A DNA stretch of 64,000 bases from NCBI GenBank assembly GCA_964596425.1, contig CAZQTC010000031.1, forward strand, positions 73,830 to 137,829, written 5' to 3'. The notes under the pieces are model-generated. The model made no database searches, was not told where the DNA came from, and saw nothing but the letters and a program-made list of their open reading frames with translations. This document shows, in pieces, positions 18,144 to 32,593 of the stretch (within the stretch, counting starts at the first letter, position 1; each line of letters begins with the position of its first letter). Source of the stretch: an uncultured Spirochaetales bacterium (GTDB lineage: Bacteria > Spirochaetota > Spirochaetia > SZUA-6). The translations under genes and the position numbers were made by a program.

Positions 18144-19544
18144 ATGGATTATTTACAACAGTTAGAATGGAGAAATTTTTTATTTCAAAGTAAGGTCAGG
18201 GTTTTAAACGAGCTTAGAAACTATATTGAAAGTGCCGATACCTACGAATTACAGCTCTTTGCCAATGATCTGGGTTCTGTATTTACCCCGGATGGTAAGA
18301 GTTTAAGGGAGATACTACTTCATGTGTTATCCACCGGAACGGCTCCTGCGGGGTGGCAACCCTTTCGGTTTCCATCTGTCGTTCCGCCTATGGGTTCCGG
18401 AGGTGCTCATGTGCCGCCACCTCCTCCACCTCCTGGAGGGATATCTGCGCCCCCACCTATGGGTGGTCCTTCGCGGGGTGCAGTCTCACCTTCAGTGTCT
18501 GGGACGGGGACTCCCCCCCCTCCACCTCCTGGATTTGTGCCCGAGGCTGCTGGTAACCTTGCTTCTGCACCACCTCCGCCATCATCTGATTCTGTGGGCG
18601 TCCCTTCCGATTCTTTGGGGGGTTCTAACATCTCCGGTACGCCTGATATGGGTGCTCCTCAGGGTACTGGGGCTGCTTTGAAGGGTTTGTCTGTGAGCGG
18701 GGGAGACGTGGAAGAGGGTACTGGCAAACAAACGGGTGAGGGTGCTTCTGTCCAGACGCTCGAAACAGAAGAAAGTTCAACAGTGGAGACACCTCAGGTT
18801 GAGGGGGCATCCGCGACGGAGAGTGCAGCATTGAAAGAAGAGGTGCTTTCCTCTCTCAAAATGGTGGATATCCCGGGTGGAAGCTTTGTTATGGGTGCCA
18901 ATGACGGACGTGAGGAGGAAAAACCGGCACATAAGGTTAATCTTTCTTCCTATAAGATGTCTGCCTACCTTGTGACCAATAAACAGTACAGAGCCTTTGT
19001 TCTTGCCAATCCTGAGTGGCAGAAAGATCGGATTAATCCCGATTTTCACGATGGGAAGTACCTGGACGATTGGGAGGGAAACGAATACCCCGAGGGTAAG
19101 GATGATCATCCTGTAGCTTTTGTTTCTTTCTATGCGGCGGAGGCATTTGCCAGGTGGTTGGGTAAAAGGCTTCCTACCGAGGCGGAGTGGGAGTTTGCAG
19201 CGAGGGGTGGCCTTGTGGGTAAGAAGTTTCCCAACGGTGATAAGATGAATGAAAAGATAGCGAATTTTGCCAAGCGCTACTCGGGTACAACACCTGTAGG
19301 ACAGTTCGATCCGAATGGATATGGGTTGTACGATATGGCGGGTAATCTGTTCGAATGGACAGCCGATTGGTTTTCCAAGTACACGGAGGAGGAACAAACA
19401 GACCCTAAGGGGCCCTCGTCTGGCGATTACAAGGTAATAAGGGGGGGAAGCTGGATTTCTTCTGCAATGACACTCCGGGTAAGTTTTAGGATAGACGAAG
19501 AACCGGAACGATGCGGGTATATCGGCATACGTCTTGCGGAGTAG
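18144..19544 (+). CDS. FGE-sulfatase (SUMF1-like) domain protein with polyproline/acidic linker
   Basis: C-terminal RLPTEAEWEFAARG, NGYGLYDMAGNLFEW, RGGSW, IGIRLA; several P4-P7 runs; no signal peptide. Confidence 0.85.
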   Translation: MDYLQQLEWRNFLFQSKVRVLNELRNYIESADTYELQLFANDLGSVFTPDGKSLREILLHVLSTGTAPAGWQPFRFPSVVPPMGSGGAHVPPPPPPPGGISAPPPMGGPSRGAVSPSVSGTGTPPPPPPGFVPEAAGNLASAPPPPSSDSVGVPSDSLGGSNISGTPDMGAPQGTGAALKGLSVSGGDVEEGTGKQTGEGASVQTLETEESSTVETPQVEGASATESAALKEEVLSSLKMVDIPGGSFVMGANDGREEEKPAHKVNLSSYKMSAYLVTNKQYRAFVLANPEWQKDRINPDFHDGKYLDDWEGNEYPEGKDDHPVAFVSFYAAEAFARWLGKRLPTEAEWEFAARGGLVGKKFPNGDKMNEKIANFAKRYSGTTPVGQFDPNGYGLYDMAGNLFEWTADWFSKYTEEEQTDPKGPSSGDYKVIRGGSWISSAMTLRVSFRIDEEPERCGYIGIRLAE

Positions 19545-19593
19545 GTTCTTAACAGGATTTTCTTTTTATTTGAGGGTTAGGTTACTTTTTGTA

Positions 19594-20466
19594 CTATTCT
19601 ATTCCCAACTGGGAGGCAGCTTTCTCTATTTCGGCCTTTGTTCTATCTACTATCTCTTGTGCCTTTTCCTTTGTGATGGGAATTCTATCAAATACCTCTT
19701 GGGGGGGTTCTTCTACAGCATTTGAGCCGCTAAAACCCAGTTGATGAGTTATTGCGAGCCAATCGCTTACCTGGACAATGTCTACAGCACTATCCTGTGA
19801 CAAGCTGAATCCCTTTCTTGTAGCTGGAGCCTCATGGTGATGTCTTATTGCAACTATTGTGAGGAGTGGTAGTTCCCATGATCTTGCAACCCATTCCCCT
19901 ACTCTTGTATGATCCACTCCTAAAATTTTTTGCTCCGCTTTGTAGAATGGAATCTCTTCCTTTTCTAACTCATCAAGTACTGGTATAAAGGTTTCTGAAC
20001 AAAAACTGTCTAGGGCTACTTTGCCTATGTCATGTAAAAGACCTGCCGTAAATATATCGTCGGGGTGTTTATGTTTTTTTTCCGTTTTGGCTATCTCTCT
20101 GGATAGGATGGCAACTGCAATGCTGTGAGTCCAAAACTTGCCCCTATCGAAACGTTTATTTGACGTTCTTTCAAAGGCTTTTATAACTCCCAATGCCAGT
20201 ACAAGTTGTGATATGGCATTTGTTCCAAGGTAGGTTACGGCCTCTTTTATATTGTTTATCTTTCTGGAGAGTCCGTAATAGGCAGAGTTTACCAGAGAAA
20301 GTACCTTGGCTGATATGCTCTGGTCATACTCTATAACCTGTGCCAATTCGGCGGCTCCCGCGGTAGGGGATTTTATTATAGAGTTTACCTTAACAGCTAC
20401 AGTTGGAAGTGTCGGCAACGACTGAATTGCTTTTATTATCTTTTTTATCTCTTCCTGATTCCCCAT
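19594..20466 (-). CDS. HDOD domain protein
   Basis: LPTLP, DQSISAKVLSLVNS, WTHS, AGLLHDIGK, IRHHHE. Confidence 0.9.
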   Translation of the reverse strand: MGNQEEIKKIIKAIQSLPTLPTVAVKVNSIIKSPTAGAAELAQVIEYDQSISAKVLSLVNSAYYGLSRKINNIKEAVTYLGTNAISQLVLALGVIKAFERTSNKRFDRGKFWTHSIAVAILSREIAKTEKKHKHPDDIFTAGLLHDIGKVALDSFCSETFIPVLDELEKEEIPFYKAEQKILGVDHTRVGEWVARSWELPLLTIVAIRHHHEAPATRKGFSLSQDSAVDIVQVSDWLAITHQLGFSGSNAVEEPPQEVFDRIPITKEKAQEIVDRTKAEIEKAASQLGIE

Positions 20467-20496
20467 GATTTCCTCCGTAGTGAGTTTTTTCGTACT

Positions 20497-22050
20497 CTAG
20501 AGACTGGCTATTACCTCTGTGATGAGTATCGTTATGTCGTCCTGAAAGTTTGGCTCTGCCATGTACATCATTAATTCCGAGAGCAGATTGTTTGACACAG
20601 CATCGATGTCATTATTTAAGTTTTCCTTCATAACTCTAATTATTCCCCGTTTCCCAAACTGTTCGTGGTTTTCATTCTCTGTTTCGAGTATCCCGTCTGT
20701 ATTGTATACAATTCTATCGCCGGGCTCCAATTCTATTGATTTCTCTTCGTATTCTGTGCCCTCAAACATTCCCAGGAAAAAACCCATCGTGGATAGCTCG
20801 GTTACCCTCCCGTCCGGATGAAAGAGAAGCTGATTAGGATGACCTGCATTAGAATAGTAGAGTTTCATCTCGTTCGTGTCAATGATAGAGTAGAAAGCGG
20901 TAATGTAGTGCTCCGTGTGAATCATGTGGGTAAACTCTTTGTTTAGTTTGGAGAGAGTTTCCGCTGTGGATAGTGACTGTGGAGCACAAAGGTCGAACTG
21001 GCTTTTAAACATTGTGGTAATAAAAGCGGAAGACACACCATGTCCGGAAACATCGGCTATTATAATTCCTACCTTACTTTTATCCAGTCTTTTAATGTCG
21101 AAGAAATCGCCCCCTATATAGGCGTAGGGTATGTATTTGTGGGCAAAGTTTAGGGGGAGATCCGTCGGAAACTCTTTTGGTAACAGGCTTTTTTGGAGCT
21201 CACTCGCAAGAGATAGTTCTTCCACTATTTGTCTGTTTTTCTTTTCAAGTTCTTCCAGAGCATTTTTCAGTTCGAGAGCCTGCTTTTGAAGGATTTCGTT
21301 TGCGGATTCCAATTCAATTGTGCGCTCTTTCAGTATGTTATCCTGTATTACATTGAGACGTTCACTCTTCTCTTCAAGATCCTTTATCTCCCTTATTTCG
21401 TTTATGAATAAAACCCATTTTGTCTTCTGAGGGAGTCCAGGGATATTGATGTGTTCGTAGGGCATTTTAGAGATGGTACAGGAAACCTCTTTGTTATGAG
21501 CGTCGGTTAGATACCTTATATGGTTTCCCTCACTGGTTGTATCTGGTATATCTTCTATGGGAAGACCAAATACCTCCTCAAATTTTTTCCCCTTCTGTTC
21601 CTTTAATTTATGTCCCAGAAACTCTCTATTGGTGGGTATGCATGAGATGATGTGTTGTTTATTATCTAAAAAGATGATCTGGACCGTTCCGCCTTCAAAG
21701 AAAGAACGTAGGAGCTGGAGACATACGTTTTTCTTTTTTCTTTTGACGAACCACTTAATCATCTTGGAGATCCAAAATGGATCGATCTCCTTTGGCAGGT
21801 ATAGTATTCTTTCCTCTCCGGCTTTTTCTTTGTCGGTGGCAAGGGCAAATATATAGGTCCCTTCTTCCGTTGCACTATTGAGCTGATCAGAGATTTCATC
21901 TAGAAAGTCGGTATCTAAGAATACAAATATATCGTTTTTTAGAAGAGAGATCTCCTCGGCGCCCCGGATTTTGAAGTTTATACCATCTTTTTTTAGTTCC
22001 TTTTGTAGATTTTCACATTCTTTGGCATCTCTCCCAACAAGTATGACCAA
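20497..22050 (-). CDS. SpoIIE/RsbU-like PP2C phosphatase with degenerate REC-like N-terminus, PAS-like domain and coiled coil
   Basis: ELQKSLLP, GGDFFD, IADVSGHG, NAGHP, YNTDGI, QDDITIL. Confidence 0.9.
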   Translation of the reverse strand: MVILVGRDAKECENLQKELKKDGINFKIRGAEEISLLKNDIFVFLDTDFLDEISDQLNSATEEGTYIFALATDKEKAGEERILYLPKEIDPFWISKMIKWFVKRKKKNVCLQLLRSFFEGGTVQIIFLDNKQHIISCIPTNREFLGHKLKEQKGKKFEEVFGLPIEDIPDTTSEGNHIRYLTDAHNKEVSCTISKMPYEHINIPGLPQKTKWVLFINEIREIKDLEEKSERLNVIQDNILKERTIELESANEILQKQALELKNALEELEKKNRQIVEELSLASELQKSLLPKEFPTDLPLNFAHKYIPYAYIGGDFFDIKRLDKSKVGIIIADVSGHGVSSAFITTMFKSQFDLCAPQSLSTAETLSKLNKEFTHMIHTEHYITAFYSIIDTNEMKLYYSNAGHPNQLLFHPDGRVTELSTMGFFLGMFEGTEYEEKSIELEPGDRIVYNTDGILETENENHEQFGKRGIIRVMKENLNNDIDAVSNNLLSELMMYMAEPNFQDDITILITEVIASL

Positions 22051-22095
22051 CTCTTCCTCCGCAGATGTTTCGAGCTTCTATGTAACAGTAACTGA

Positions 22096-22128
22096 TAACT
22101 ATTGTAGTTAAAATTGTAAATGATACAA
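22096..22128 (-). promoter_or_regulatory. Candidate promoter of the PP2C-HDOD operon with overlapping palindrome
   Basis: Minus strand TTGTAT-16-TACAAT; the -10 lies inside TAACTA-N3-TAGTTA (22096-22110). Confidence 0.45.
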
Positions 22129-22148
22129 GAAGTAAAAGAAAAAATGTG

Positions 22149-22162
22149 AGATAACGTTATCT
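22149..22162. promoter_or_regulatory. Perfect 14-bp palindrome, candidate operator
   Basis: AGATAACGTTATCT in the intergenic region upstream of the PP2C gene. Confidence 0.45.
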
Positions 22163-22621
22163 TTTATTTGTGTTTGACTTAGGGAAAATGAGTAGTAATC
22201 AATTTTATGTTCCACCGTTGTACCCGCAATTTTTACCGTTTTGCAGGTTGGTATGCTTGGTGTATAGTAGATTCCTCAGGGCTACGATAACCGGGACTAG
22301 GATAAAAACAATCGTCGCTAATTCTAGCCAGATGGACATATCCCATCCCTTGTGGAGGGTCAGGAATTTGGGAAGCGAGAGAAATAGGAGAAATAGTATG
22401 TATTCATACTATCTGTTTTTCTCTCTAAAGTGGAAGATAAGAATGGTTGTACTTATCCGCGACGCGTATAAATAAATATTCTCTCCCATTACATAACTCG
22501 CGGAAATGGAGTCGATACGGTGACGGAAGAGAAAAAAATTGAGGAATTGATGACACGTTTGTTTGGTTCGTGGTTAGCAATGAGATTTTCCACAATGAGG
22601 TTCTCCAAATAATAAAAAGAT

Positions 22622-22649
22622 TTGACTTTGAAATCGGTGGAAGTATAAT
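22622..22649 (+). promoter_or_regulatory. Sigma-70-type promoter of the alpha/beta hydrolase gene
   Basis: TTGACT-16 bp-TATAAT; SD AGGAGG at about 22707. Confidence 0.65.
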
Positions 22650-22723
22650 TTTTTTACGAATGGTAGATTTTTACTCTTTTTTTAGAGCTTCCTTAGGAGT
22701 AATTGTAGGAGGAAAGTAATAGT

Positions 22724-23527
22724 ATGAATCATATCAAGGCTTCTCTTAAAACAGACGACGGGTATAGGATACCGTATCATAGCTGGGAGCTTAGACAGGG
22801 TGGGTATAAATGGTTGGCTCTTGTACTTAGAGACCCCTATTTTCCTATTGAGCGGAATGAGCGACTGATCAATTTTTTGCTTGAGAATTACTTTAAGTTG
22901 TACGCACCTGAGATTCCTGAAATTTCTAATTCCGCAGGCAAGCCGATGGGGATAGATGGTTTTTCTGCGCATCTTGGGAGTTTTAGAGCCTTTCTTGAGG
23001 AAAAAGAGGATAATTTACCGATTGTACCCTTTGTCTTTTCTATATCTGCTCTCCCGTTTCTCTACTATTATTTTCATGTGCTTCCCCCCTTTAAAAAGAT
23101 AGTTATGTTTTCTCCCGTATTGGATTATTCGAAAAAGCCCCTGGAGGGTTCGTTGTTCTGCAAGAGCAGGATACAGGTTGCTTTTAGTGATGATATGCTC
23201 TCCGAGGTAGCTGCAGAGAGATCCGAGGCGGAGAAAGCTATGGACAAATCCCCCACTGTTTCGAAAAAATTGGTAAAGGATTTGAGACGAGAGTTTGCGA
23301 GTTTCCCGGGGGAGTTGGGAGTTGATACTGTTAATGTAAGAATCGGGGTTTTCTATGGAGAATCGGATGGTCTTGTCTCTGTTGAGAGAGTTAATGCTCT
23401 TAAAGATTCCCTTAAGAGTGGTGAGGTGGAGATATATACGTATCCCCGAGTACGTCATTTTATGTTCAATGACAAGTACTGGAAGAATTTGCTTAATGAT
23501 CTGAAGGTATTTTTGGGTAAGGAGTAG
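22724..23527 (+). CDS. Divergent alpha/beta hydrolase (lysophospholipase/PldB-like)
   Basis: DGYRIPYHSW N-terminus, FSPV, GESDGLV (Asp), RHFMF (His); nucleophile elbow reads VFSISA instead of GxSxG. Confidence 0.65.
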   Translation: MNHIKASLKTDDGYRIPYHSWELRQGGYKWLALVLRDPYFPIERNERLINFLLENYFKLYAPEIPEISNSAGKPMGIDGFSAHLGSFRAFLEEKEDNLPIVPFVFSISALPFLYYYFHVLPPFKKIVMFSPVLDYSKKPLEGSLFCKSRIQVAFSDDMLSEVAAERSEAEKAMDKSPTVSKKLVKDLRREFASFPGELGVDTVNVRIGVFYGESDGLVSVERVNALKDSLKSGEVEIYTYPRVRHFMFNDKYWKNLLNDLKVFLGKE

Positions 23528-23557
23528 AAGACTTAAAGATACTTAAGGATAGGTAGC

Positions 23558-24067
23558 CTATTTTAGCTTTTTTATCACGTTATCTATCAATTTTACCTCT
23601 CGCTGTACCGATTTTAAATAGATCGGGAGAGAGTTTTTATAGTTTATACATGATTTTACTATTATTTCTTTCTCTGCTTTCGTAAAACTTATTTTTTTTT
23701 CGGTTTTTTTCTTTTTCGTTTTTTTCTTCTCTGTTGTTTCTTCTTCTGTTGTTTTTACGGTATCTTCATAGGCTATAGAGTTTTCTCCTATAAGGGCTTC
23801 CTGGAGCGGAGATAATTTTTTCGTTTTTGTTTTTTTTCTGGTCTTTTTTTGCGCTTTGGTGGGGGGGGTGTCCTCTGCCTTTTCATCGATAATTTTTTCT
23901 TCGATAACGGTCTCGTTCAATGCCTCCTCGTTCTGAGTTTTGCTCTTCTCCTCTATCTCTTTTAGTACTTTGAAAATACTGGTTTCTGTTATATCTTTTG
24001 GTACCTGAGCTATTCGTTGTTCTACCCGCTCGGCATTTGGACCTTTTATTAACTTTTTTCTTCCCAT
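23558..24067 (-). CDS. Hypothetical Lys-rich protein downstream of parA (putative ParA partner)
   Basis: 169 aa; basic N-terminal peptide, Lys/Glu/Thr-rich linker, C-terminal helical hairpin; SD GGGGAG; no ParB GxxR motif. Confidence 0.65.
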   Translation of the reverse strand: MGRKKLIKGPNAERVEQRIAQVPKDITETSIFKVLKEIEEKSKTQNEEALNETVIEEKIIDEKAEDTPPTKAQKKTRKKTKTKKLSPLQEALIGENSIAYEDTVKTTEEETTEKKKTKKKKTEKKISFTKAEKEIIVKSCINYKNSLPIYLKSVQREVKLIDNVIKKLK

Positions 24068-24127
24068 TTTAGCTACTCCCCACTTTTTATAGATATCTGT
24101 TTATGCAGAGTATATTATAGGAAAATC

Positions 24128-24901
24128 TCATGAGTTTTCTAACCATTTTTCTACTTCTTTGGCTAATTCTTTAAAATCTTGTGCCCCTCTGGATTTGGGG
24201 GCATAGTCGAAGATTGTTTTTTGAGCGTATTGACTCTCTTCAACCGCGATGTTTTTATGTATTACGGTTTTAAAAACCATATCGCCTAACTGTTTCCTTA
24301 GAGTTGCAGCAAGGTCCTGGCTTATAACGGTGCGTTTGTCGTAGAGAGTAATAAAGTAACGGACACTTCTTAAGCCGGGATTACTCTCCCTCGCCTCTTT
24401 TATTGTTTCATTAAGATCACCCAATCCCTCCTGACAGAAGAATGTCGGCTGTACAGGAACAAGTACGTGGGTCGCGGCGAGTAGGGCTGAGATTGTAAAG
24501 AGACCGAGAGAGGGAGGGGTATCTATTACTATGTAATTAAAGTCTTTGTATACCTCCGGTAGAGCCTTCTTTAGGGTATTAAATGTGGAAAGAGTTCTCT
24601 CCAGATTTTCCACTCTGTTTAGTTTTGTGCGTGTTGGTATAATGAAGAGGTTTTCGTATGGGGTTTGTGTTATGAGTTCTCTTATATTAGCCTCCCCACG
24701 GTATAGAAGGGATACATCGCGTTCTATCTTTTCGTAGTCCATGATATTTCTTGTAAGGTTGGCCTGTGGGTCTGTATCTATCATAAGAACTTTTTTACCC
24801 TCGAGTGCCCATGCTGCAGATAAGGAGAGAACCGAGGTGGTTTTACAGACTCCCCCTTTCTGCTGAGCTACGCATAATATTTTTGGCTTATACCTCTTCA
24901 T
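24128..24901 (-). CDS. parA: ParA/Soj-family ATPase (orphan)
   Basis: QQKGGVCKTT Walker A variant, IDTDPQANLT, IDTPPSLG, final FKELAKEV. Confidence 0.9.
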   Translation of the reverse strand: MKRYKPKILCVAQQKGGVCKTTSVLSLSAAWALEGKKVLMIDTDPQANLTRNIMDYEKIERDVSLLYRGEANIRELITQTPYENLFIIPTRTKLNRVENLERTLSTFNTLKKALPEVYKDFNYIVIDTPPSLGLFTISALLAATHVLVPVQPTFFCQEGLGDLNETIKEARESNPGLRSVRYFITLYDKRTVISQDLAATLRKQLGDMVFKTVIHKNIAVEESQYAQKTIFDYAPKSRGAQDFKELAKEVEKWLENS

Positions 24902-25013
24902 GTTCTACTAATCGGCCTAAATTTCTTAAATATCAAAAAAAATCTTGCATATTATTTTTTCATTAATAATATATTTATTAGAGTGATACAATAAGCGCAT
25001 ATAAGGATAAAAA

Positions 25014-25919
25014 ATGGGGAAAGTCTACTCTGTAGGTTTCAAGGAAGAAGAGCACAGTAAAATTGGGGAGATTGTTTCCAAGAAGGGACTTGAATTTGTA
25101 GAACTTACAGAGGATGTGGTAGAAACTCTTTCTGCGGCGGAGAGACATACCCCGGTGTTTATCAAGGTTGATGACAGGGAGGGGGTCAAATTATTAAAGA
25201 AAATAAAGACAGAGGCGGGGGAGAATATATATGTGTGTGGAGTAGATTACTCTAACAGGGATATAGCGTTTGCTGTTTCTCTGATTGATGATGTTCGGGT
25301 GTTTTATCTCCCGGTGGATGAAAACGAGATTCGTAAGGTTCTCAATGAGATAATGGAGGAGATAAGGGTAGGGGAGGCGGAAACCTCGGTTTTTGACGGG
25401 CTTAAGAGTTCGTTTTCTAGTTTTGAATGGGAAACAGACAAGGTCGCTGTTTCGAGTGTGTGTAAGTATTTGGCACGTTCTATGAGGAACGCGGGTTTTT
25501 ATAAAACCTCTACGGAGGAGGATAATGCTGTTCTTGCTCTGGAGGAGGCCCTGTTGAACTCGATTGAGCATGGTAATCTGGAGTTAGATTCTTCTTTAAG
25601 GCCGAAGGACATTTTGGAAGAGGATAAATATGAGCTTTTGAAGGCGGAGAGACTAAGGGATAAGAGATATGCGGGTAGGAAGATTAAGATAGGTGTAGAG
25701 ATGGATGAAAATAAGTGCACTATATCTATTGAGGATGAAGGGCAAGGATTTGATACTTCAAAGGTAAAAGATTATATTAATAATGAAAATTATACCAACG
25801 AGGATATAGCTGACGTTTCTGGTAAGGGATTCTCGTTGATGAAGAGGGCATTTGATAAAGTCGAGTACAACGACAGGGGAACTGTTATTAAATTAACTAA
25901 ATACAGAGATAAGAGTTAA
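25014..25919 (+). CDS. RsbW-like anti-sigma factor / Ser kinase (HATPase_c_2) with N-terminal pseudo-receiver
   Basis: EALLNSIEHGN, IEDEGQGFD, SGKGFSLM, YNDRGT; N-terminal REC-like pattern lacks the acidic pocket. Confidence 0.82.
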   Translation: MGKVYSVGFKEEEHSKIGEIVSKKGLEFVELTEDVVETLSAAERHTPVFIKVDDREGVKLLKKIKTEAGENIYVCGVDYSNRDIAFAVSLIDDVRVFYLPVDENEIRKVLNEIMEEIRVGEAETSVFDGLKSSFSSFEWETDKVAVSSVCKYLARSMRNAGFYKTSTEEDNAVLALEEALLNSIEHGNLELDSSLRPKDILEEDKYELLKAERLRDKRYAGRKIKIGVEMDENKCTISIEDEGQGFDTSKVKDYINNENYTNEDIADVSGKGFSLMKRAFDKVEYNDRGTVIKLTKYRDKS

Positions 25920-25930
25920 AGGAGGTTCAG

Positions 25931-26173
25931 ATGGAACTATCTGAGAAAGAACTAAAGATTGTACTGCAGTCTTTGAAGAGTTATCTTGGTGAGGTTGCTG
26001 GAGCTACTCAGGCACAGAAAAACAAGATGGAGGCAGTGCAAAAAATTATAGATAAGATAGAAGGGGAGATTGGTCCCCTAAAACCGGAAATAACACCTTT
26101 TGATAAAAAGATGGAAGAGTCCCTTTCAGTATTGAAAAAGGGCAAACAAACAACTAAGAAAAAGAAAAAATAG
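25931..26173 (+). CDS. Small hypothetical protein (helical hairpin + poly-Lys tail)
   Basis: 80 aa; SD GGAGG; in operon spacing. Confidence 0.7.
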   Translation: MELSEKELKIVLQSLKSYLGEVAGATQAQKNKMEAVQKIIDKIEGEIGPLKPEITPFDKKMEESLSVLKKGKQTTKKKKK

Positions 26174-26181
26174 GAGGAAAT

Positions 26182-26901
26182 ATGGCTAAGCAAGAAGAAC
26201 AAGCAAAATTGTGGAGTCGTGAGGCTATAATGGCTGTAGAGAATAGGATTCTACAGCAGATTGTGGCAGCCCGTACTCCGGAGGCGGTAGAAGCCGCAAT
26301 AAGTTATGCGCGATTTCTAAGGCTTTCAGGATTGACTTCAGATAACTATCCCCTATTCCTAAAGATGCTAGAAATAGAGAACCATTGGGTTCTTGACGCT
26401 CTAATAGGGGATGAGGATCCGTTCCTGTTGCTCTCTACCATCCAACCCAACAGGTATGTAATTTCGACCTGTTTTAAGCTTTTGACAAGGTGGCATCCGG
26501 GTGGTATCTATCCCAACACACTCTCAATAGCCCTAGGTGTGCTTCAGAGCGCCTACAGCTCTCCAAAGGATGGGTATAAAATTTATCCATTAAATGTGGC
26601 TGATGTTGATAACCTCGGTAAGCACCTTGAGAAGGAGAAGGGACAGAACTATCCCCAGAACCGATGTATTCTGGATATCCTTGATAGGATAGGTTCCCTT
26701 CAAGGTCTGGGTTGGGATGAATCTATGGAGGAGGTAGCACGACAGGCCATAAGGATTAGGAGTAACTTCTTTGATAATACAAAGAAGTTGGAGGATTGTA
26801 TTCCTCAGGTTTTGCTTGTAAGAGGCGATTATCTTAAAGAGGAGGTTCCTCCGAGGTTTGTCTTTGAAGAAGATATCGATGTAACCCATAGGCACGATTA
26901 A
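26182..26901 (+). CDS. Hypothetical protein, paralog A of tandem pair
   Basis: 239 aa; SD GGAGG; about 55-60% identical (hand alignment) to 26931..27650. Confidence 0.85.
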   Translation: MAKQEEQAKLWSREAIMAVENRILQQIVAARTPEAVEAAISYARFLRLSGLTSDNYPLFLKMLEIENHWVLDALIGDEDPFLLLSTIQPNRYVISTCFKLLTRWHPGGIYPNTLSIALGVLQSAYSSPKDGYKIYPLNVADVDNLGKHLEKEKGQNYPQNRCILDILDRIGSLQGLGWDESMEEVARQAIRIRSNFFDNTKKLEDCIPQVLLVRGDYLKEEVPPRFVFEEDIDVTHRHD

Positions 26902-26930
26902 TAATCATTTTAGGAAAAAGGAGAAGAGAT

Positions 26931-27650
26931 ATGGATGAATTAATAGCACAAGAAACGTGGACGCCAGAGCAAATAGCTGAAATTGAGAATAGATTATTAC
27001 AGGGAATCTTCGGTTGTCGTTCCTATGAGGCTGTTGAAGCTGCTATGACCTACGCAGCTTTCTTAAACACCGTTGGTTTAACCCCGGAGAACTACCCTGT
27101 ATTTTTAAGAATGCTTGAAATAGAGAATCACTGGGTAATTGATGCTCTGATAGGTGATAAGGATCCATTTTTGTTGTTATCACCTGTTCAGCCAAATAGG
27201 TACATTGTGGGAAAGATATTTGGAATGATGACCAAGTGGCACAAGGGTGGTATCTATCCCAAGAATCTCTCTGTTATCCTTGGTGTATTACAGTCTAATT
27301 ATAGTTCACCGAGGGATGGGTATAGAATTTATCCGTTAAGCATTTCGGATTTGAACGCTCTTGGTAAACATCTTGATAAAGAAAAGGGACAGGACGACGC
27401 TCTTAATAGAACAATACTTGATATACTTGATAAGATTTCCCAGTTGGAGGGTGTTGGTACGGATCCTGAGATGGAAGAGGTTGCAATTCATGCCTCTGCC
27501 ATAAGAAACGCATTCTTTGACGATAGAAAGAGAATGGAAGATGTTATTCCTCCCGTTCTCTTGGTAAAGGCGAGCTATCACGAAAAGGAGGTTGCACCTA
27601 GAAAACGTATTCCTTTGAAAGAAAAACTTAAAAAAGAAAAGGAAAAGTAG
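26931..27650 (+). CDS. Hypothetical protein, paralog B of tandem pair
   Basis: 239 aa; SD AGGAG; shares MLEIENHWV, DPFLLLS, GGIYP, LGKHL, ILDILD with paralog A. Confidence 0.85.
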   Translation: MDELIAQETWTPEQIAEIENRLLQGIFGCRSYEAVEAAMTYAAFLNTVGLTPENYPVFLRMLEIENHWVIDALIGDKDPFLLLSPVQPNRYIVGKIFGMMTKWHKGGIYPKNLSVILGVLQSNYSSPRDGYRIYPLSISDLNALGKHLDKEKGQDDALNRTILDILDKISQLEGVGTDPEMEEVAIHASAIRNAFFDDRKRMEDVIPPVLLVKASYHEKEVAPRKRIPLKEKLKKEKEK

Positions 27651-28736
27651 GTGGAACGGATAGAAAGGTATTCCAAACTCCTCGAGCAGGTTGATTTTGA
27701 AAACGGTGTCACAATCGAGGACCGTACCTATTACGGTCCCGATGATGTTATTAATGAGCTTAGAGAGCTCGAGGAGCTGTATCAGGCATTGAAGGACTTT
27801 GATATTTTGAGCCTATACGATAGGACGATAGCCCATGACGGCCTTCATGATGAGGATATATACGATCATGGGAGGTACTACGCGTACTTCAGCTTTGAGC
27901 TTAAGGGGCAGAGTAGTGAGGAGAAAGAGGAAAACCTTGTAAATGCCCTTGGAGAGATTGTAGAGCGCTTTGGTAAAGAGCGGGTGCTTAAGTACTTTCC
28001 CAACAGGATCAAGGGCCGTCAAGTGACGGAGGATTTAAAGATAAGACCCGAGGATGAGGATTACCCCTCCTACTATTCTCAGTTTAGGATGGACTATGCC
28101 GAGAAGATGGCGAAAGAAGAGGTGCCTGGCGAGGTGCTCTCCAGAATCCGTGATGATCAGGATGCTATTTTAGATCGCTACGATTGGAATGCGATATATA
28201 TTGCGGATACGGATGGGGAATTGATTGAGGTTTGCGGGGATGTATATCTGGTTCCTCGGGATAAATTGGAGAAGGTATCCCTCTATGCGAGGCTTTGGAA
28301 TGAACTGATTGATAAGGGAGAAGAACATTTCTATGAGTTTTCCATAGCAACGGATGGTGAGTACCCCAAGGATGAGAATAATCCCTATGGGAGGTACTAT
28401 GCCTATGTAAAGTTGGAGCTTAAAGGCCTTAGCGATGAGGGGAGGGTAAAGTTTTTAGAGGAAAACCTTTCGGAGGATATAGTTAAGGGGCTGGGAATTG
28501 ATGAGGTCTCTAGTATTTTCCCTAAGCGGATAGACGGAGACCTTGTTACGCAGCCGTTAACGATTCGTCCCGACGAAGAGGAGTTTCCTTCTCATTTTAA
28601 TGAGAAAAAGGTAGAGCAGGGTAGAAAGCGAGCTTATAAACAGGTTCTCTTTAATATAAGAGCAGAGATTGTGGAACGACTCAAGAGAATCTTGGGGGAA
28701 ATCAAAAAGGCAATTATCTTGGAACAAACTGAATAA
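27651..28736 (+). CDS. Hypothetical acidic protein built of two internal repeats
   Basis: 361 aa; GRYYAY..ELKG..FP.RI.G..VT..L.IRP occurs twice; GTG start abuts the previous stop. Confidence 0.8.
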   Translation: MERIERYSKLLEQVDFENGVTIEDRTYYGPDDVINELRELEELYQALKDFDILSLYDRTIAHDGLHDEDIYDHGRYYAYFSFELKGQSSEEKEENLVNALGEIVERFGKERVLKYFPNRIKGRQVTEDLKIRPEDEDYPSYYSQFRMDYAEKMAKEEVPGEVLSRIRDDQDAILDRYDWNAIYIADTDGELIEVCGDVYLVPRDKLEKVSLYARLWNELIDKGEEHFYEFSIATDGEYPKDENNPYGRYYAYVKLELKGLSDEGRVKFLEENLSEDIVKGLGIDEVSSIFPKRIDGDLVTQPLTIRPDEEEFPSHFNEKKVEQGRKRAYKQVLFNIRAEIVERLKRILGEIKKAIILEQTE

Positions 28737-28763
28737 TTAAAACTATTAGGAGGAGGAAAGAGC

Positions 28764-29072
28764 ATGGATATTGATCTCGAAAAAAATGGTGATACTGTAA
28801 AAATGATAATTGATGGAAATATTGATACGGATGGTGGGCATCAGCTCTCGGTAAAAATTCAGGAAATAATGGAGATGGATGATGTAATGCATGTTATATG
28901 TGATATGACGACGGTTAAGACGATTACTTCATCTGGTATAGGGAAATTGATGAATTTTTATAAATTTATGGATTCTAAAGGTGGAACATTCGAGATAAAG
29001 GGAATCTCTGATAACCTTTACAAGCAGTTTATGGAGATCCATCTTGACAGAATCTTTCCCATAAACAAATAA
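28764..29072 (+). CDS. STAS-domain anti-sigma factor antagonist 1
   Basis: 102 aa; IDGNID, ICDMTTVKTITSSGIGKL; SD AGGAGG. Confidence 0.88.
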   Translation: MDIDLEKNGDTVKMIIDGNIDTDGGHQLSVKIQEIMEMDDVMHVICDMTTVKTITSSGIGKLMNFYKFMDSKGGTFEIKGISDNLYKQFMEIHLDRIFPINK

Positions 29073-29083
29073 GGAGGAATTCC

Positions 29084-29905
29084 TTGAATCATATAGTAAC
29101 GAGTTTTCGAAATCATAAAGGTGAGAAACTCTTTTATCACTATTGGGAAGAGTCCAGTAAGAGTTATAACAAAATAATTGTACTATTACACGGTATCTGC
29201 TATCATGCTGGTTCTTACCCGTACCTGATTCCTGCCCTAATATCGAAAGGATTTAAGGTGTACGCCTTTGATTTTCAGGGGTTTGGTAAGAGTCCGGGTG
29301 ATAGGGGAGATATAGACAATTTTAAGAAGTATGTGGATGATTTGGAGTCTTTTAGGCGGATGATAAAGGGTAGGGAGGGTTACAGAGAAATAATATTCCT
29401 CGGACATTCTCTGGGAGCAAACGTTGCCCTTGCATACCCTTTAAGGTATCCTGAAAATCCTGTAAGAACGATTTTTGCCTCATTGCTCCTCTCTTCCCCG
29501 CTGATTGATAGTGCTGTGAAAGAGGAGGGTTCTCCCATTGATGTTACTCTGGAAGATTTTGTAACGGATAAGGCACGGGTAGACTCTCTTATGGAGGATG
29601 AGCTTGTTGTGAAGCAGATTTCCAAGCGACTTCTTCAGTTTATTGACAGCTCGAATAGAGAGGTTATGGAGAATCTTGATAAATTGAAAGATGGAAAGTT
29701 TCTCTTTCTCCATGGGGAGTTTGATAAAATATCCTCTGTGGACGCTGTCGAAAAATTATACGAGAGATTGGAGTGTAAGAGGAAAAAACTTGTAACCTTC
29801 CCAAGGATGTTGCATGACATCTTTGCAGAGAAGAGGAGAGAACAGGTGTTTAATGCCATTGCTCTGTGGTTGAGCGAGACGGAATTTGAGCATAAAGCAC
29901 CTTAA
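29084..29905 (+). CDS. Alpha/beta hydrolase, lysophospholipase (PldB-like)
   Basis: LLHGI, DFQGFGKSPG, GHSLG, GEFD, HDIF catalytic triad. Confidence 0.9.
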   Translation: MNHIVTSFRNHKGEKLFYHYWEESSKSYNKIIVLLHGICYHAGSYPYLIPALISKGFKVYAFDFQGFGKSPGDRGDIDNFKKYVDDLESFRRMIKGREGYREIIFLGHSLGANVALAYPLRYPENPVRTIFASLLLSSPLIDSAVKEEGSPIDVTLEDFVTDKARVDSLMEDELVVKQISKRLLQFIDSSNREVMENLDKLKDGKFLFLHGEFDKISSVDAVEKLYERLECKRKKLVTFPRMLHDIFAEKRREQVFNAIALWLSETEFEHKAP

Positions 29906-29938
29906 CAGTTTGATTAAAACGACTGAGAGGAGAGGGAT

Positions 29939-30250
29939 ATGGATCTTGATATTGTAATAGAAGATGATACTGTGTATTTTAAAGTTTCGGGCCCGATAGA
30001 TACAGAGGGAGGTTCTGAACTGACGAATAAGTTTATGGAAATAGCCAGTGATGAAACGATAAAGAATGCTGAGTTCGATCTGAGTGAGGTACCAACTATT
30101 ACAAGTGCCGGTATAGGAAAGCTTTTGAGGTTTTTCAAACACTTCGACAAGCTTGGTGGAAAGATGAAGATAAAGGGTATCTCAGATTCACTTAAGGAGC
30201 AGTTTGCAGAAATCCATCTTGATCAGATAATCCCCGTAGAGGATAAGTGA
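29939..30250 (+). CDS. STAS-domain anti-sigma factor antagonist 2
   Basis: 103 aa; VSGPID, FDLSEVPTITSAGIGKL; paralog of 28764..29072. Confidence 0.88.
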   Translation: MDLDIVIEDDTVYFKVSGPIDTEGGSELTNKFMEIASDETIKNAEFDLSEVPTITSAGIGKLLRFFKHFDKLGGKMKIKGISDSLKEQFAEIHLDQIIPVEDK

Positions 30251-31603: not shown

Positions 31604-32557
31604 TTATAAATCAAGCCAGGTAGTAAAATTCTTTATCCCCTGGACGGTGATTTTTGCGGCTTTTTGGGCATCGCGCTTTAAGATGCCAACGCCCTTATTG
31701 AATATTGAGGTTAAGAACTCGTAAATATTGTCAAAAACGTCCGGTACATTGTAAAAAAGTATGGCAAAATCATTTTTTCTCGGTTTTACTATCGTAAATG
31801 ACGAGTAAGATATAATTGGTTTTTTACCTATATATACGGTGTCATGCTTTTTTGTTGTCAGAGTGAATAACTCAGAGAACCTGTAGGGAATGCTCTTGCC
31901 ACTTTCCCGTTGTACTGGTTCTATGTTCTTGAATGGGTAGTTTGCAGGTTCTATTAGAACGTATAATTTGCAACCGGCCGATTTAAAGACCAGTGTGTCC
32001 CCCTCTAACCTTATCTCCTGTACGTTGTCGTATCCCGCGATTTCGAAAATAGAGTAGTTTGTATCCGGTTGAAAGTTGGATGATACGATGTAGCCCCCGT
32101 ATTTGGGTAGTTTCCCCTGCCTATAGGCTTCGAATAGATGAACAGCCTGGAGTTTTTTCTTTCTCTTTGGAGGGGTAATCTTTTCCTTTACTACTTCTTC
32201 GGGTTTTTTTCTTTTAGTGGTCTTTTGTGAGGGTTCCTTTTTAGGGGTTTCTTTCTCAACAGGAGGAATTTCAACTGTTGTAGAAATATCGGATTTTTTC
32301 TTGGTTTTTCTACTTGGCTTTTTCCCTTTTGGTTGGGCTATGGGGGCAACTTCGAGGTTCTCTGATTTCTCTTTGAGTTCTTCGATTGTTTTTTTCTTTC
32401 TCTTTGAGTTTCTACGAAGTTTCTCGAGCGTTTCTATTAGGTCTTCGCATTCCTCTCTTACCCTTTGATCTTTGGAGCTTATACCTCCTCCGTATATTAC
32501 CTCGTACTGCTGGACAATTTCTATTAGACGTTCTATCTGGTTATCAGAGAGCTCCAT
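31604..32557 (-). CDS. Hypothetical protein: N-terminal helical hairpin, Lys-rich linker, C-terminal globular domain
   Basis: Start reassigned to MELSDNQ at 32557 because a consensus promoter overlaps the longer ORF start. Confidence 0.75.
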   Translation of the reverse strand: MELSDNQIERLIEIVQQYEVIYGGGISSKDQRVREECEDLIETLEKLRRNSKRKKKTIEELKEKSENLEVAPIAQPKGKKPSRKTKKKSDISTTVEIPPVEKETPKKEPSQKTTKRKKPEEVVKEKITPPKRKKKLQAVHLFEAYRQGKLPKYGGYIVSSNFQPDTNYSIFEIAGYDNVQEIRLEGDTLVFKSAGCKLYVLIEPANYPFKNIEPVQRESGKSIPYRFSELFTLTTKKHDTVYIGKKPIISYSSFTIVKPRKNDFAILFYNVPDVFDNIYEFLTSIFNKGVGILKRDAQKAAKITVQGIKNFTTWLDL

Positions 32558-32564
32558 AAAAATA

Positions 32565-32593
32565 ATTCTAATCGAAATGGTAAGGTAGGTCAA
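32565..32593 (-). promoter_or_regulatory. Sigma-70-type promoter 7 nt before the ATG at 32557 (leaderless candidate)
   Basis: TTGACC-17 bp-TAGAAT-tattttt-ATG. Confidence 0.65.

Follow-up and report, generated by a model that had tools for sequence, protein, structure and literature searches.

A spirochaete-specific ParA ATPase with a fixed Walker A cysteine, and a proposed adaptor that shares its hairpin with a conserved three-protein assembly

By comparing a 64,000-nt stretch of DNA from an uncultured Spirochaetales bacterium (hereafter the window, i.e. the whole stretch, whose positions are used throughout) with a set of further loci (L001-L030), we found that a ParA/MinD-family ATPase and the small partner protein encoded directly downstream of it are connected to a second set of neighboring genes. 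The C-terminal hairpin of the partner is orthologous to the third subunit of a three-protein assembly, here called the triad, the other two members of which are the paralogous proteins p239a and p239b (the a/b pair). We favor the reading, with a probability of about 0.55, that the two genes form a dedicated module in which a ParA motor and an adaptor position the a/b/hairpin triad on the nucleoid. The data also support regarding the ParA-partner pair as a new, spirochaete-specific motor/adaptor variant within the ParA positioning systems. The original prediction, made from the letters of the window, had described an orphan ParA with a Gly-to-Cys variant of the Walker A motif, a partner that is not ParB, and a cargo that it could not name.

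The connection to the triad emerged from loci outside the spirochaetes. Five distinct non-spirochaete a/b loci were recovered, four of which reach past the pair (L025, L026, L027 and L029). Outside the spirochaetes the a/b pair is a bare module, with neither ParA nor signaling genes, consisting of a, b and a hairpin protein of 65-82 residues. A hidden Markov model (HMM) of the partner hairpin matched the small open reading frame directly downstream of the pair in all four of these loci (E-values 5e-9 to 2e-14), and no ParA was found within 10 kb of the pair in any of them. Applied to all fetched loci, the hairpin HMM picked out exactly one open reading frame per locus, namely the ParA partner in spirochaetes and the third triad gene elsewhere, and an HMM of the N-terminal module of the partner matched all 24 spirochaete partners and none of the ParA-less third proteins. 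Taken together, the two patterns imply that the partner is the third subunit of the triad, moved beside a dedicated ParA and extended by an N-terminal tag. The original statement that the cargo is unknown thereby loses part of its force, while its expectation of a non-DNA cargo remains the probable one. A cysteine in the first helix of the hairpin (C140, motif AC..[YF]R..LP.Y) is kept without exception by the spirochaete partners as well as by the third proteins from loci without ParA (L025-L029), and therefore predates the association with ParA.

The same genes are also kept together on the chromosome. By tblastn of the cluster proteins of the window against all loci, the a/b pair was located 1.3-6 kb from parA in 14 out of the 15 loci that extend far enough to include it, the exception being L002. 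The variation follows from the placement of an operon that begins with an RsbW-like kinase: in the window and its closest relatives this operon lies divergently beside parA, which puts p239a just 1.3 kb from parA, and in the other loci p239a is situated about 6 kb downstream.

Little could be attached to the a/b pair by similarity. A search with p239a returned more than 1394 homologue clusters, which align along almost their whole length at 72-91% identity and are without exception annotated as hypothetical, from metagenome-assembled genomes (MAGs) of Acidobacteriota (Vicinamibacteria), Desulfobacterota (Desulfobacteraceae), a Bacteroidota-type group (Rhodothermales) and Proteobacteria, as well as from one Bathyarchaeota MAG. 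No Pfam domain was matched by these homologues, nothing was found by sequence in the PDB, and a literature search found the motifs of the a/b pair in no paper. The AlphaFold2 model of p239a is all-alpha and of low confidence (predicted local distance difference test, pLDDT, 62), and its fold matches were weak and confined to ARM, TOG and importin solenoids (best E-value 0.048). On the strength of this model p239a may tentatively be described as a plausible helical-repeat scaffold of the ARM/HEAT kind.

The partner consists of two conserved modules joined by a variable linker. In an alignment of 23 sequences the N-terminal module has the consensus MARKRLIKGxNAxRVExRIAxVPxD...SIFxALKxLE, with R3, K4, L6, K8, G9, N11 and A12 invariant, and the conserved C-terminal segment of about 45 residues reads FTxAERExIVRCCxDYRNxLPIYLxAVQxEVxxIDSVIxKC. 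The linker has no conserved columns and carries nearly all of the length variation of the orthologues, which range from 108 to 287 residues. It stays basic and disordered, and its composition shifts from Lys/Glu/Thr-rich in the low-GC window to Pro/Ala/Arg-rich in high-GC relatives (L004, L010 and L012). In the AlphaFold2 model residues 1-9 are extended, 10-20 and 31-55 form helices, 56-128 are disordered (pLDDT about 50), and a hairpin with a pLDDT above 90 follows, which is charge-balanced and not basic. The only homologues that a sequence search gave were eight proteins, and the orthologues recovered from the loci all belong to Spirochaetota MAGs.

No known family could be assigned to the partner. 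It had no Pfam or NCBIfam match, not even when the two conserved modules were searched alone at an E-value of 10, and Foldseek returned no PDB structure at E<1. Homology to McdB, ParP, TlpT or any other described adaptor family was not detectable. A ribbon-helix-helix (RHH) domain of the ParG/omega kind, which the stretch KISFTKAEKE... might bring to mind, was rejected, as the model has no strand there, Pfam gave no RHH at an E-value of 10 and no fold was matched. The earlier description of the partner as something other than ParB thus stands, with no CTPase motif (GxxRxxA), helix-turn-helix (HTH) or RHH appearing in Pfam/NCBIfam, in the AlphaFold2 model or in the fold search; nor is it a known centromere binder, as there was neither a family nor a fold match and no repeats were seen near the operon.

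What the N-terminus of the partner does resemble is the activating peptide of ParB. The first ten residues of Helicobacter pylori ParB (HpParB) are MAKNKVLGRG, of which Leu7 and Arg9 are conserved among ParBs, and stimulatory residues have been located at Lys5/Arg9 in HpParB, Lys3/Lys7 in BsSpo0J and Arg10 in TtSpo0J (PMC11229316). The invariant K4, L6, K8 and G9 of the partner have the spacing of K5, L7, R9 and G10 in HpParB, i.e. the ParB motif K-x-L-x-[KR]-G, and the suggestion that the basic peptide MGRKKLIKG would activate ParA is in agreement with this. In partner proteins generally, a charged N-terminus serves the ATPase and the remainder the cargo (PMC10241942; PMC11407121). Judging from its sequence, the partner appears to belong to this adaptor class, given its invariant charged N-peptide, its separate hairpin part and the location of its gene beside candidate cargo genes.

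Partner and ATPase are encoded as a unit. The partner gene directly follows parA in all 24 spirochaete loci (20 from genomes and four from metagenomes, belonging to Spirochaetota MAGs labelled Rectinemataceae, 'Treponemataceae' or Spirochaetales), and in the three loci with gene calls (L001, L003 and L004) its start overlaps the 3' end of parA by 19 nt, implying translational coupling of the two. In place of the overlap, the window has a 60-nt spacer (24068-24127) with a Shine-Dalgarno-like sequence of its own, GGGGAG.

Both open reading frames were recovered as originally delineated (Table 1). The minus-strand codons CAG CAG AAA GGG GGA GTC TGT AAA ACC ACC translate to QQKGGVCKTT, which bears out the reported Walker A motif with its TGT codon, and the signature lysine and the DPQ and DTPP motifs are likewise intact (DTDPQ at residues 42-46, IDTPPS at 126-131). 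No variation was seen at Lys15 (the signature lysine), Lys20, Thr21, Gln46 and Asp127, either within the clade or among 162 outgroup ParAs; Pro45 likewise never varies inside the clade. Membership of the ParA/MinD superfamily follows from the xKGGxxK[ST] motif with its signature lysine, the switch I/A' aspartate (DxDPQ), the Walker B aspartate and Pfam matches above threshold, namely to AAA_31 (2e-44; 151.9 bits against a cut-off of 27) and CbiA (3e-18; 66.6 bits against 25.4). The protein falls under every NCBIfam equivalog cut-off, e.g. with 117.1 bits against 180 for NF041546, and the ParA, RepA and MinD models gave sub-threshold matches only. Among solved structures, T. thermophilus Soj comes closest (1WCV, 4e-39), and other Soj/ParA proteins rank after it, with HpSoj at 1e-29. 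Inspection of the C-terminal sequence revealed no obvious amphipathic membrane helix of the MinD type.

A search of 5.8 billion proteins yielded 61 full-length relatives with 63-96% identity, all from Spirochaetota MAGs. An exhaustive HMMER scan covering 1.84 billion representatives at 50% identity placed the entire clade in a single cluster scoring 386 bits, the next full-length proteins reaching at most 191 bits. A maximum-likelihood tree recovered the Cys-containing ParAs as monophyletic (60 out of 60 tips, support 0.999), on a stem that is the longest internal branch of the tree (0.62, against a median of 0.06) and nested among Soj-like ParAs. As to clustering with chromosomal Soj, which would have spoken against the original prediction, the protein forms a long-branch clade of its own, albeit a Soj-derived one. 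The epithet orphan fits. Within the window no second ParA was found.

The Walker A cysteine, Cys19, is real. KGGVCKT was found in all 61 full-length relatives, and the next 53 matches, with at most 45% identity, all read KGGVGKT. The codon is TGT in the window and TGC in 24 other loci, and the adjacent Gly and Val codons take all synonymous forms across the loci. Fixation in 61 out of 61 relatives combined with the synonymous difference between TGT and TGC indicates purifying selection, which rules out a sequencing error, the alternative raised together with the original claim, as well as a pseudogene.

How unusual the cysteine is turned out to be another matter, and here the original prediction had implied too much. 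The consensus KGGxGK[TS] from which the motif was said to deviate is too narrow, the definition in the field being KGGXXK[S/T] (PMC9178275). This definition leaves the position free, so KGGVCKT still fits it, and the Walker A motif of F-plasmid SopA is KGGVYKT, with a tyrosine at the equivalent of Cys19 (PMC9178275 Table 1). When the nearest 148 representatives (50% identity) beyond the clade are compared, 131 have Gly at this position, 16 have Ala and one has Ser (Ala/Ser about 11%). A breach of the family motif is thus ruled out by the definition itself, by SopA and by the Ala and Ser of close relatives, although cysteine as such is restricted to the clade, occurring in none of the 148 representatives and in none of the 162 outgroup ParAs. 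A literature search did not find KGGVCKT in any paper. In the ATP-bound H. pylori ParA (HpParA) the equivalent Gly16 touches O3A and O2B of ATP through its backbone NH only (PMC11229316 Table 2), for which reason a small side chain should be tolerated at this position. With the P-loop cysteine being a fixed small-residue replacement where the contact to ATP is made by the backbone alone, the ParA is expected to be an active ATPase.

Three cysteines are found among the 24 clade-defining positions, i.e. those where the clade residue reaches a conservation of 97% or more in the clade itself and is shared by no more than 5% of the sequences outside. Besides Cys19, which replaces the Gly of the outgroup, they are Cys10 (98% of the clade against 4% of the 162 outgroup ParAs) and Cys156 (100% of the clade against 1% outside), both of which replace Ala. 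In HpParA the beta6-alpha7 loop contacts the ATP of the other monomer, E156 directly at O3' and Q154, F157 and F158 via water (PMC11229316 Table 2). Mapped onto HpParA, Cys156 comes right after the equivalents of F157 and F158, and Cys19 and the Cys156 of the opposite monomer therefore both map to the ATP-sandwich interface. The P-loop cysteine, fixed together with the other two, makes a testable candidate for redox control of a ParA.

A separate question concerns Cys19 itself, and here we give somewhat less than even odds to a neutral reading. According to this, Cys19 has no special function and is a neutral small-residue swap frozen in a slow P-loop, the pair being otherwise an ordinary accessory ParA with its adaptor. 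Such an account draws on the freedom of the position in the defining motif and the Tyr of SopA, on the 16 Ala and one Ser among the nearest representatives, and on the backbone-only contact in HpParA. It sits less well with the absence of any other Cys at this position in the outgroup and the representatives, with the retention of the residue through a synonymous codon change, and with the concentration of clade-defining substitutions (three out of 24) on the rarest residue, two of them at the ATP-sandwich interface.

Two further sets of residues bear on what the ATPase does. In HpParA the ParB peptide is clamped by a loop of low conservation, residues 51-60 (PMC11229316), and the clade-specific invariant residues R51, I53, Y56, D62 and Y67 are located in or just past the corresponding loop, which fits a private interface between ATPase and partner. 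The patch by which Soj binds DNA non-specifically consists of R182, R194, R208 and R211 in TtSoj (PMC6393308). Three out of these four positions are basic in the clade: R190 is invariant, R202 occurs in 92% and position 216 has Lys or Arg throughout (equivalent to R182, R194 and R208, respectively).

With three out of four positions of the non-specific DNA patch kept basic in the ATPase, a ParB-like tag on the partner and a hairpin derived from the cargo, positioning by a diffusion ratchet on the nucleoid is the most economical reading. By analogy with ParABS and McdAB, sandwich dimers of ATP-bound ParA would coat the nucleoid, while the adaptor hairpin would dock on the a/b assembly. The N-peptide of the adaptor would then stimulate ATP hydrolysis by ParA and its release from DNA, and the resulting ParA gradient would distribute and segregate the triad along the nucleoid. 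All of these physical interactions, the binding to the nucleoid and the positioning itself we infer from the described systems. The expected non-DNA cargo is probable also from the partner side, considering the lack of ParB, HTH and RHH domains, the lack of centromere-like repeats and the conserved chromosomal cluster.

Several observations weigh against positioning. The fourth position of the DNA patch is lost, being Ala or Ser in the clade (A219), and the triads of other phyla do without a linked ParA. As the a/b pair is uncharacterized and the model of p239a is of low confidence (pLDDT 62), a discrete low-copy body in need of positioning is only conjectural. The basic linker of the partner could bind DNA directly, which would favor a tethering or regulatory role over a ratchet. 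Finally, the downstream remainder of the cluster is missing from L002, possibly due to an assembly break.

The proposed positioning module resembles McdA/McdB, ParC/ParP and PpfA/TlpT in that a small ParA ATPase is encoded beside a non-ParB adaptor, with genes that adjoin those of the cargo (here the candidate cargo). As in systems of the McdAB type, the charged N-terminus of the adaptor presumably meets the ATPase and the remainder would bind a protein cargo, and three out of four positions of the nucleoid patch are basic (PMC10241942; PMC11407121). It differs from them in that the partner has no sequence relation to McdB, ParP or TlpT, and in that the candidate cargo is an undescribed helical a/b pair instead of a microcompartment or a chemoreceptor array. 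Moreover, the adaptor is here itself a conserved part of the candidate cargo, its third subunit, which has gained a tag at the N-terminus. Beta-McdA has the Walker A motif SGGQGKT, whereas the ParA described here keeps the signature lysine and has a cysteine before the catalytic one.

Likeness to Soj/Spo0J (ParABS) is found in the nearest sequences and structures, the catalytic residues, three out of four DNA-patch residues and the K-x-L-x-[KR]-G N-terminus. In contrast to Spo0J, however, the partner lacks CTPase, HTH and dimerization domains; no parS was seen, the neighborhood is not of the origin type, and the ParA, below the equivalog cut-offs, belongs to its separate long-branch clade. ParF/ParG of TP228 and delta/omega of pSM19035 also are two-gene operons, in which a small ParA is joined by a small partner whose flexible N-tail is activating and whose C-terminal domain is compact. 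This domain is here a two-helix hairpin without RHH signature or match, there are no iterated centromere repeats, and unlike the type Ib plasmid systems the locus is chromosomal and vertically conserved within the clade. F-plasmid SopA, finally, is a functional ParA with a residue other than Gly before the catalytic lysine (PMC9178275), but it is a large type Ia protein with an N-terminal HTH and Tyr instead of Cys, related at the superfamily level only.

An unlikely alternative is that the ParA acts as a regulatory switch, in which ATP-dependent dimerization sequesters or releases the adaptor and the a/b scaffold and thereby gates a partner-switching circuit (the RsbW-like kinase, two STAS proteins, PP2C and two RsbQ-like hydrolases). 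Analogues would be FlhG/FleN with FlrA/FleQ, and Soj with DnaA. The pair is indeed embedded in a conserved signaling cluster in all loci, members of the family bind partners according to nucleotide state (PMC11407121), and dimerization could depend on conditions by way of the three clade-specific cysteines, two of which map to the ATP-sandwich interface. Yet the non-specific DNA patch, basic here at three positions out of four, and the ParB-like activating peptide are hallmarks of gradient-forming ParAs, and no transcription-factor domain is present in the partner or the a/b pair. Regulation and positioning are compatible roles and not mutually exclusive.

We regard DNA partition of the type Ib kind as improbable. 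The partner would in that case be a centromere binder, by way of a hairpin dimer or the basic linker, and would segregate the chromosome or a region of it, possibly replacing Soj/Spo0J. The small, Soj-like ParA with TtSoj as its nearest solved structure would suit this, as would the ParB/ParG-style N-tail and the basic linker. The domains required of such a binder did not appear, with no RHH, HTH or ParB match in Pfam/NCBIfam even at an E-value of 10, no fold at E<1 and a modelled C-terminus of two helices with no N-terminal strand. Around the operon no iterated centromere-like repeats were found, only Lys-codon low complexity inside the partner gene and pairs at chance level, although diverged sites could escape such a search. 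The hairpin is charge-balanced rather than basic, its orthologue is invariably encoded after a non-DNA a/b pair, with no ParA present, and the locus has conserved chromosomal synteny with signaling genes and no plasmid or origin markers.

A bolder version of positioning, which we consider a long shot, would have the triad be a discrete low-copy body of an undescribed bacterial kind, partitioned on the nucleoid by a ParA that acts as a thiol switch through its three cysteines, so that the positioning of the body answers redox stress in step with the partner-switching circuit; in this version Cys10, Cys19 and Cys156 would act by disulfide bonding across the interface of the sandwich dimer or by sharing a metal site. 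An anti-phage defense system was rejected, as PADLOC gave no match for eight cluster proteins.

The wider neighborhood is a supercluster of largely constant order. It starts with ParA and partner, followed by a convergent alpha/beta-hydrolase, a SpoIIE-type PP2C and, in some loci, an HDOD protein. It continues with a convergent FGE-sulfatase-domain protein and p329 and with the RsbW-like kinase, p80, p239a, p239b and p361, and ends with a STAS protein and a second alpha/beta-hydrolase, to which some loci add another STAS protein. Identity across the loci is 84-97% for p239a/p239b, 65-85% for ParA, 36-53% for the RsbW-like kinase and 29-51% for the partner. A whole partner-switching set surrounds the ParA pair, with no sigma factor visible in the cluster. 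The region between parA and the kinase operon contains no iterated repeats and only weak promoter-like matches. In L002 (ERZ25039473 contig_9147) ParA and partner are the same as in L001, and a break inside the PP2C gene is followed by unrelated genes, e.g. citrate synthase, which points to a rearrangement in the strain or else to a chimeric assembly.

The hairpin module seems to have a relative within the cluster itself. Alignment of the partner C-terminus with the N-terminus of p80 by hhalign gave a probability of 85% and a P-value of 6e-6 over 44 ungapped columns, with negative controls at about 0.35. That p329 also shares the hairpin is more doubtful, its P-values being 2.6e-4 against p80 and 0.047 directly against the partner (controls about 0.35). 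The N-terminus of p329 (..QYEVIYGGGIS..) resembles the hairpin, and its C-terminal domain is conserved; the gene lies directly upstream of the kinase operon in most clade members, but has shifted by about 6 kb in the lineage of the window. The protein p361, which has no family match, contains an internal duplication with the block GRYYAY..ELKG...FP.RI.G..VT..L.IRP.E.E.PS occurring twice; it always comes after p239b in the spirochaete cluster and is absent from the triads of other phyla.

Table 1. Features of the ParA-partner locus and its surroundings (window positions).
Feature	Position	Strand	Description
ParA/MinD-family ATPase	24128..24901	-	257 aa; Soj-derived, spirochaete-specific clade; Pfam AAA_31
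Deviant Walker A motif, K15-G-G-V-C19-K20-T21	24839..24859	-	Cys19 codon TGT at 24845-24847
Cys10	24872..24874	-	strand beta1; clade-specific; outgroup ParAs mostly Ala
Cys156	24434..24436	-	motif FFCQEG; start of helix alpha7, after the beta6-alpha7 loop
Intergenic region		24902..25013		between the divergent parA and RsbW-like kinase operons
Partner	23558-24067	-	169 aa; downstream of parA
Partner N-module, residues 1-45	23933..24067	-	MGRKKLIKG, helix 10-20, start of helix 31-55; putative ParA-binding/activating tag
Partner linker, residues 46-123	23699..23932	-	disordered from about residue 56; basic, hypervariable
Partner C-terminal hairpin, residues 124-169	23561..23698	-	helices 130-146 and 152-168; putative cargo-docking domain
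Partner C140	23648-23650		hairpin helix 1
p239a/p239b pair	26182..27650	+	candidate cargo; p239a 26182-26901, p239b 26931-27650; paralogous
p80	25931..26173	+	N-terminus a diverged paralogue of the hairpin module (hhalign); just upstream of the a/b pair
p361	27651-28736	+	no family match
p329	31604-32593	-	hairpin-like N-terminus
RsbW-like kinase	25014-25919		pseudo-receiver-like N-domain; partner-switching set
STAS proteins (two)	28764-29072, 29939-30250		partner-switching set
PP2C/SpoIIE phosphatase	20497-22050		partner-switching set
RsbQ-like alpha/beta-hydrolases (two)	22724-23527, 29084-29905		partner-switching set
HDOD protein and FGE-sulfatase-domain protein	within 18144-30250		partner-switching set, which as a whole spans 18144-30250

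ParA/MinD ATPases are general cargo-positioning machines of prokaryotes, and each new cargo has opened new cell biology. For this orphan ParA it is now possible to name a candidate cargo, which we infer to be the a/b/hairpin triad. Conversely, the ParA serves as a functional label on the otherwise opaque triad, whose proteins are among the most conserved uncharacterized ones we know of (72-91% identity across phyla), and from the presence of a dedicated motor one may suspect that the triad builds an assembly that is large and countable. The partner would also illustrate, as it occurs in nature, the 'luggage tag' principle (PMC10241942), in which a cargo subunit becomes a client of ParA by gaining an N-terminal peptide, a tag-by-peptide design that may be useful for synthetic positioning systems.

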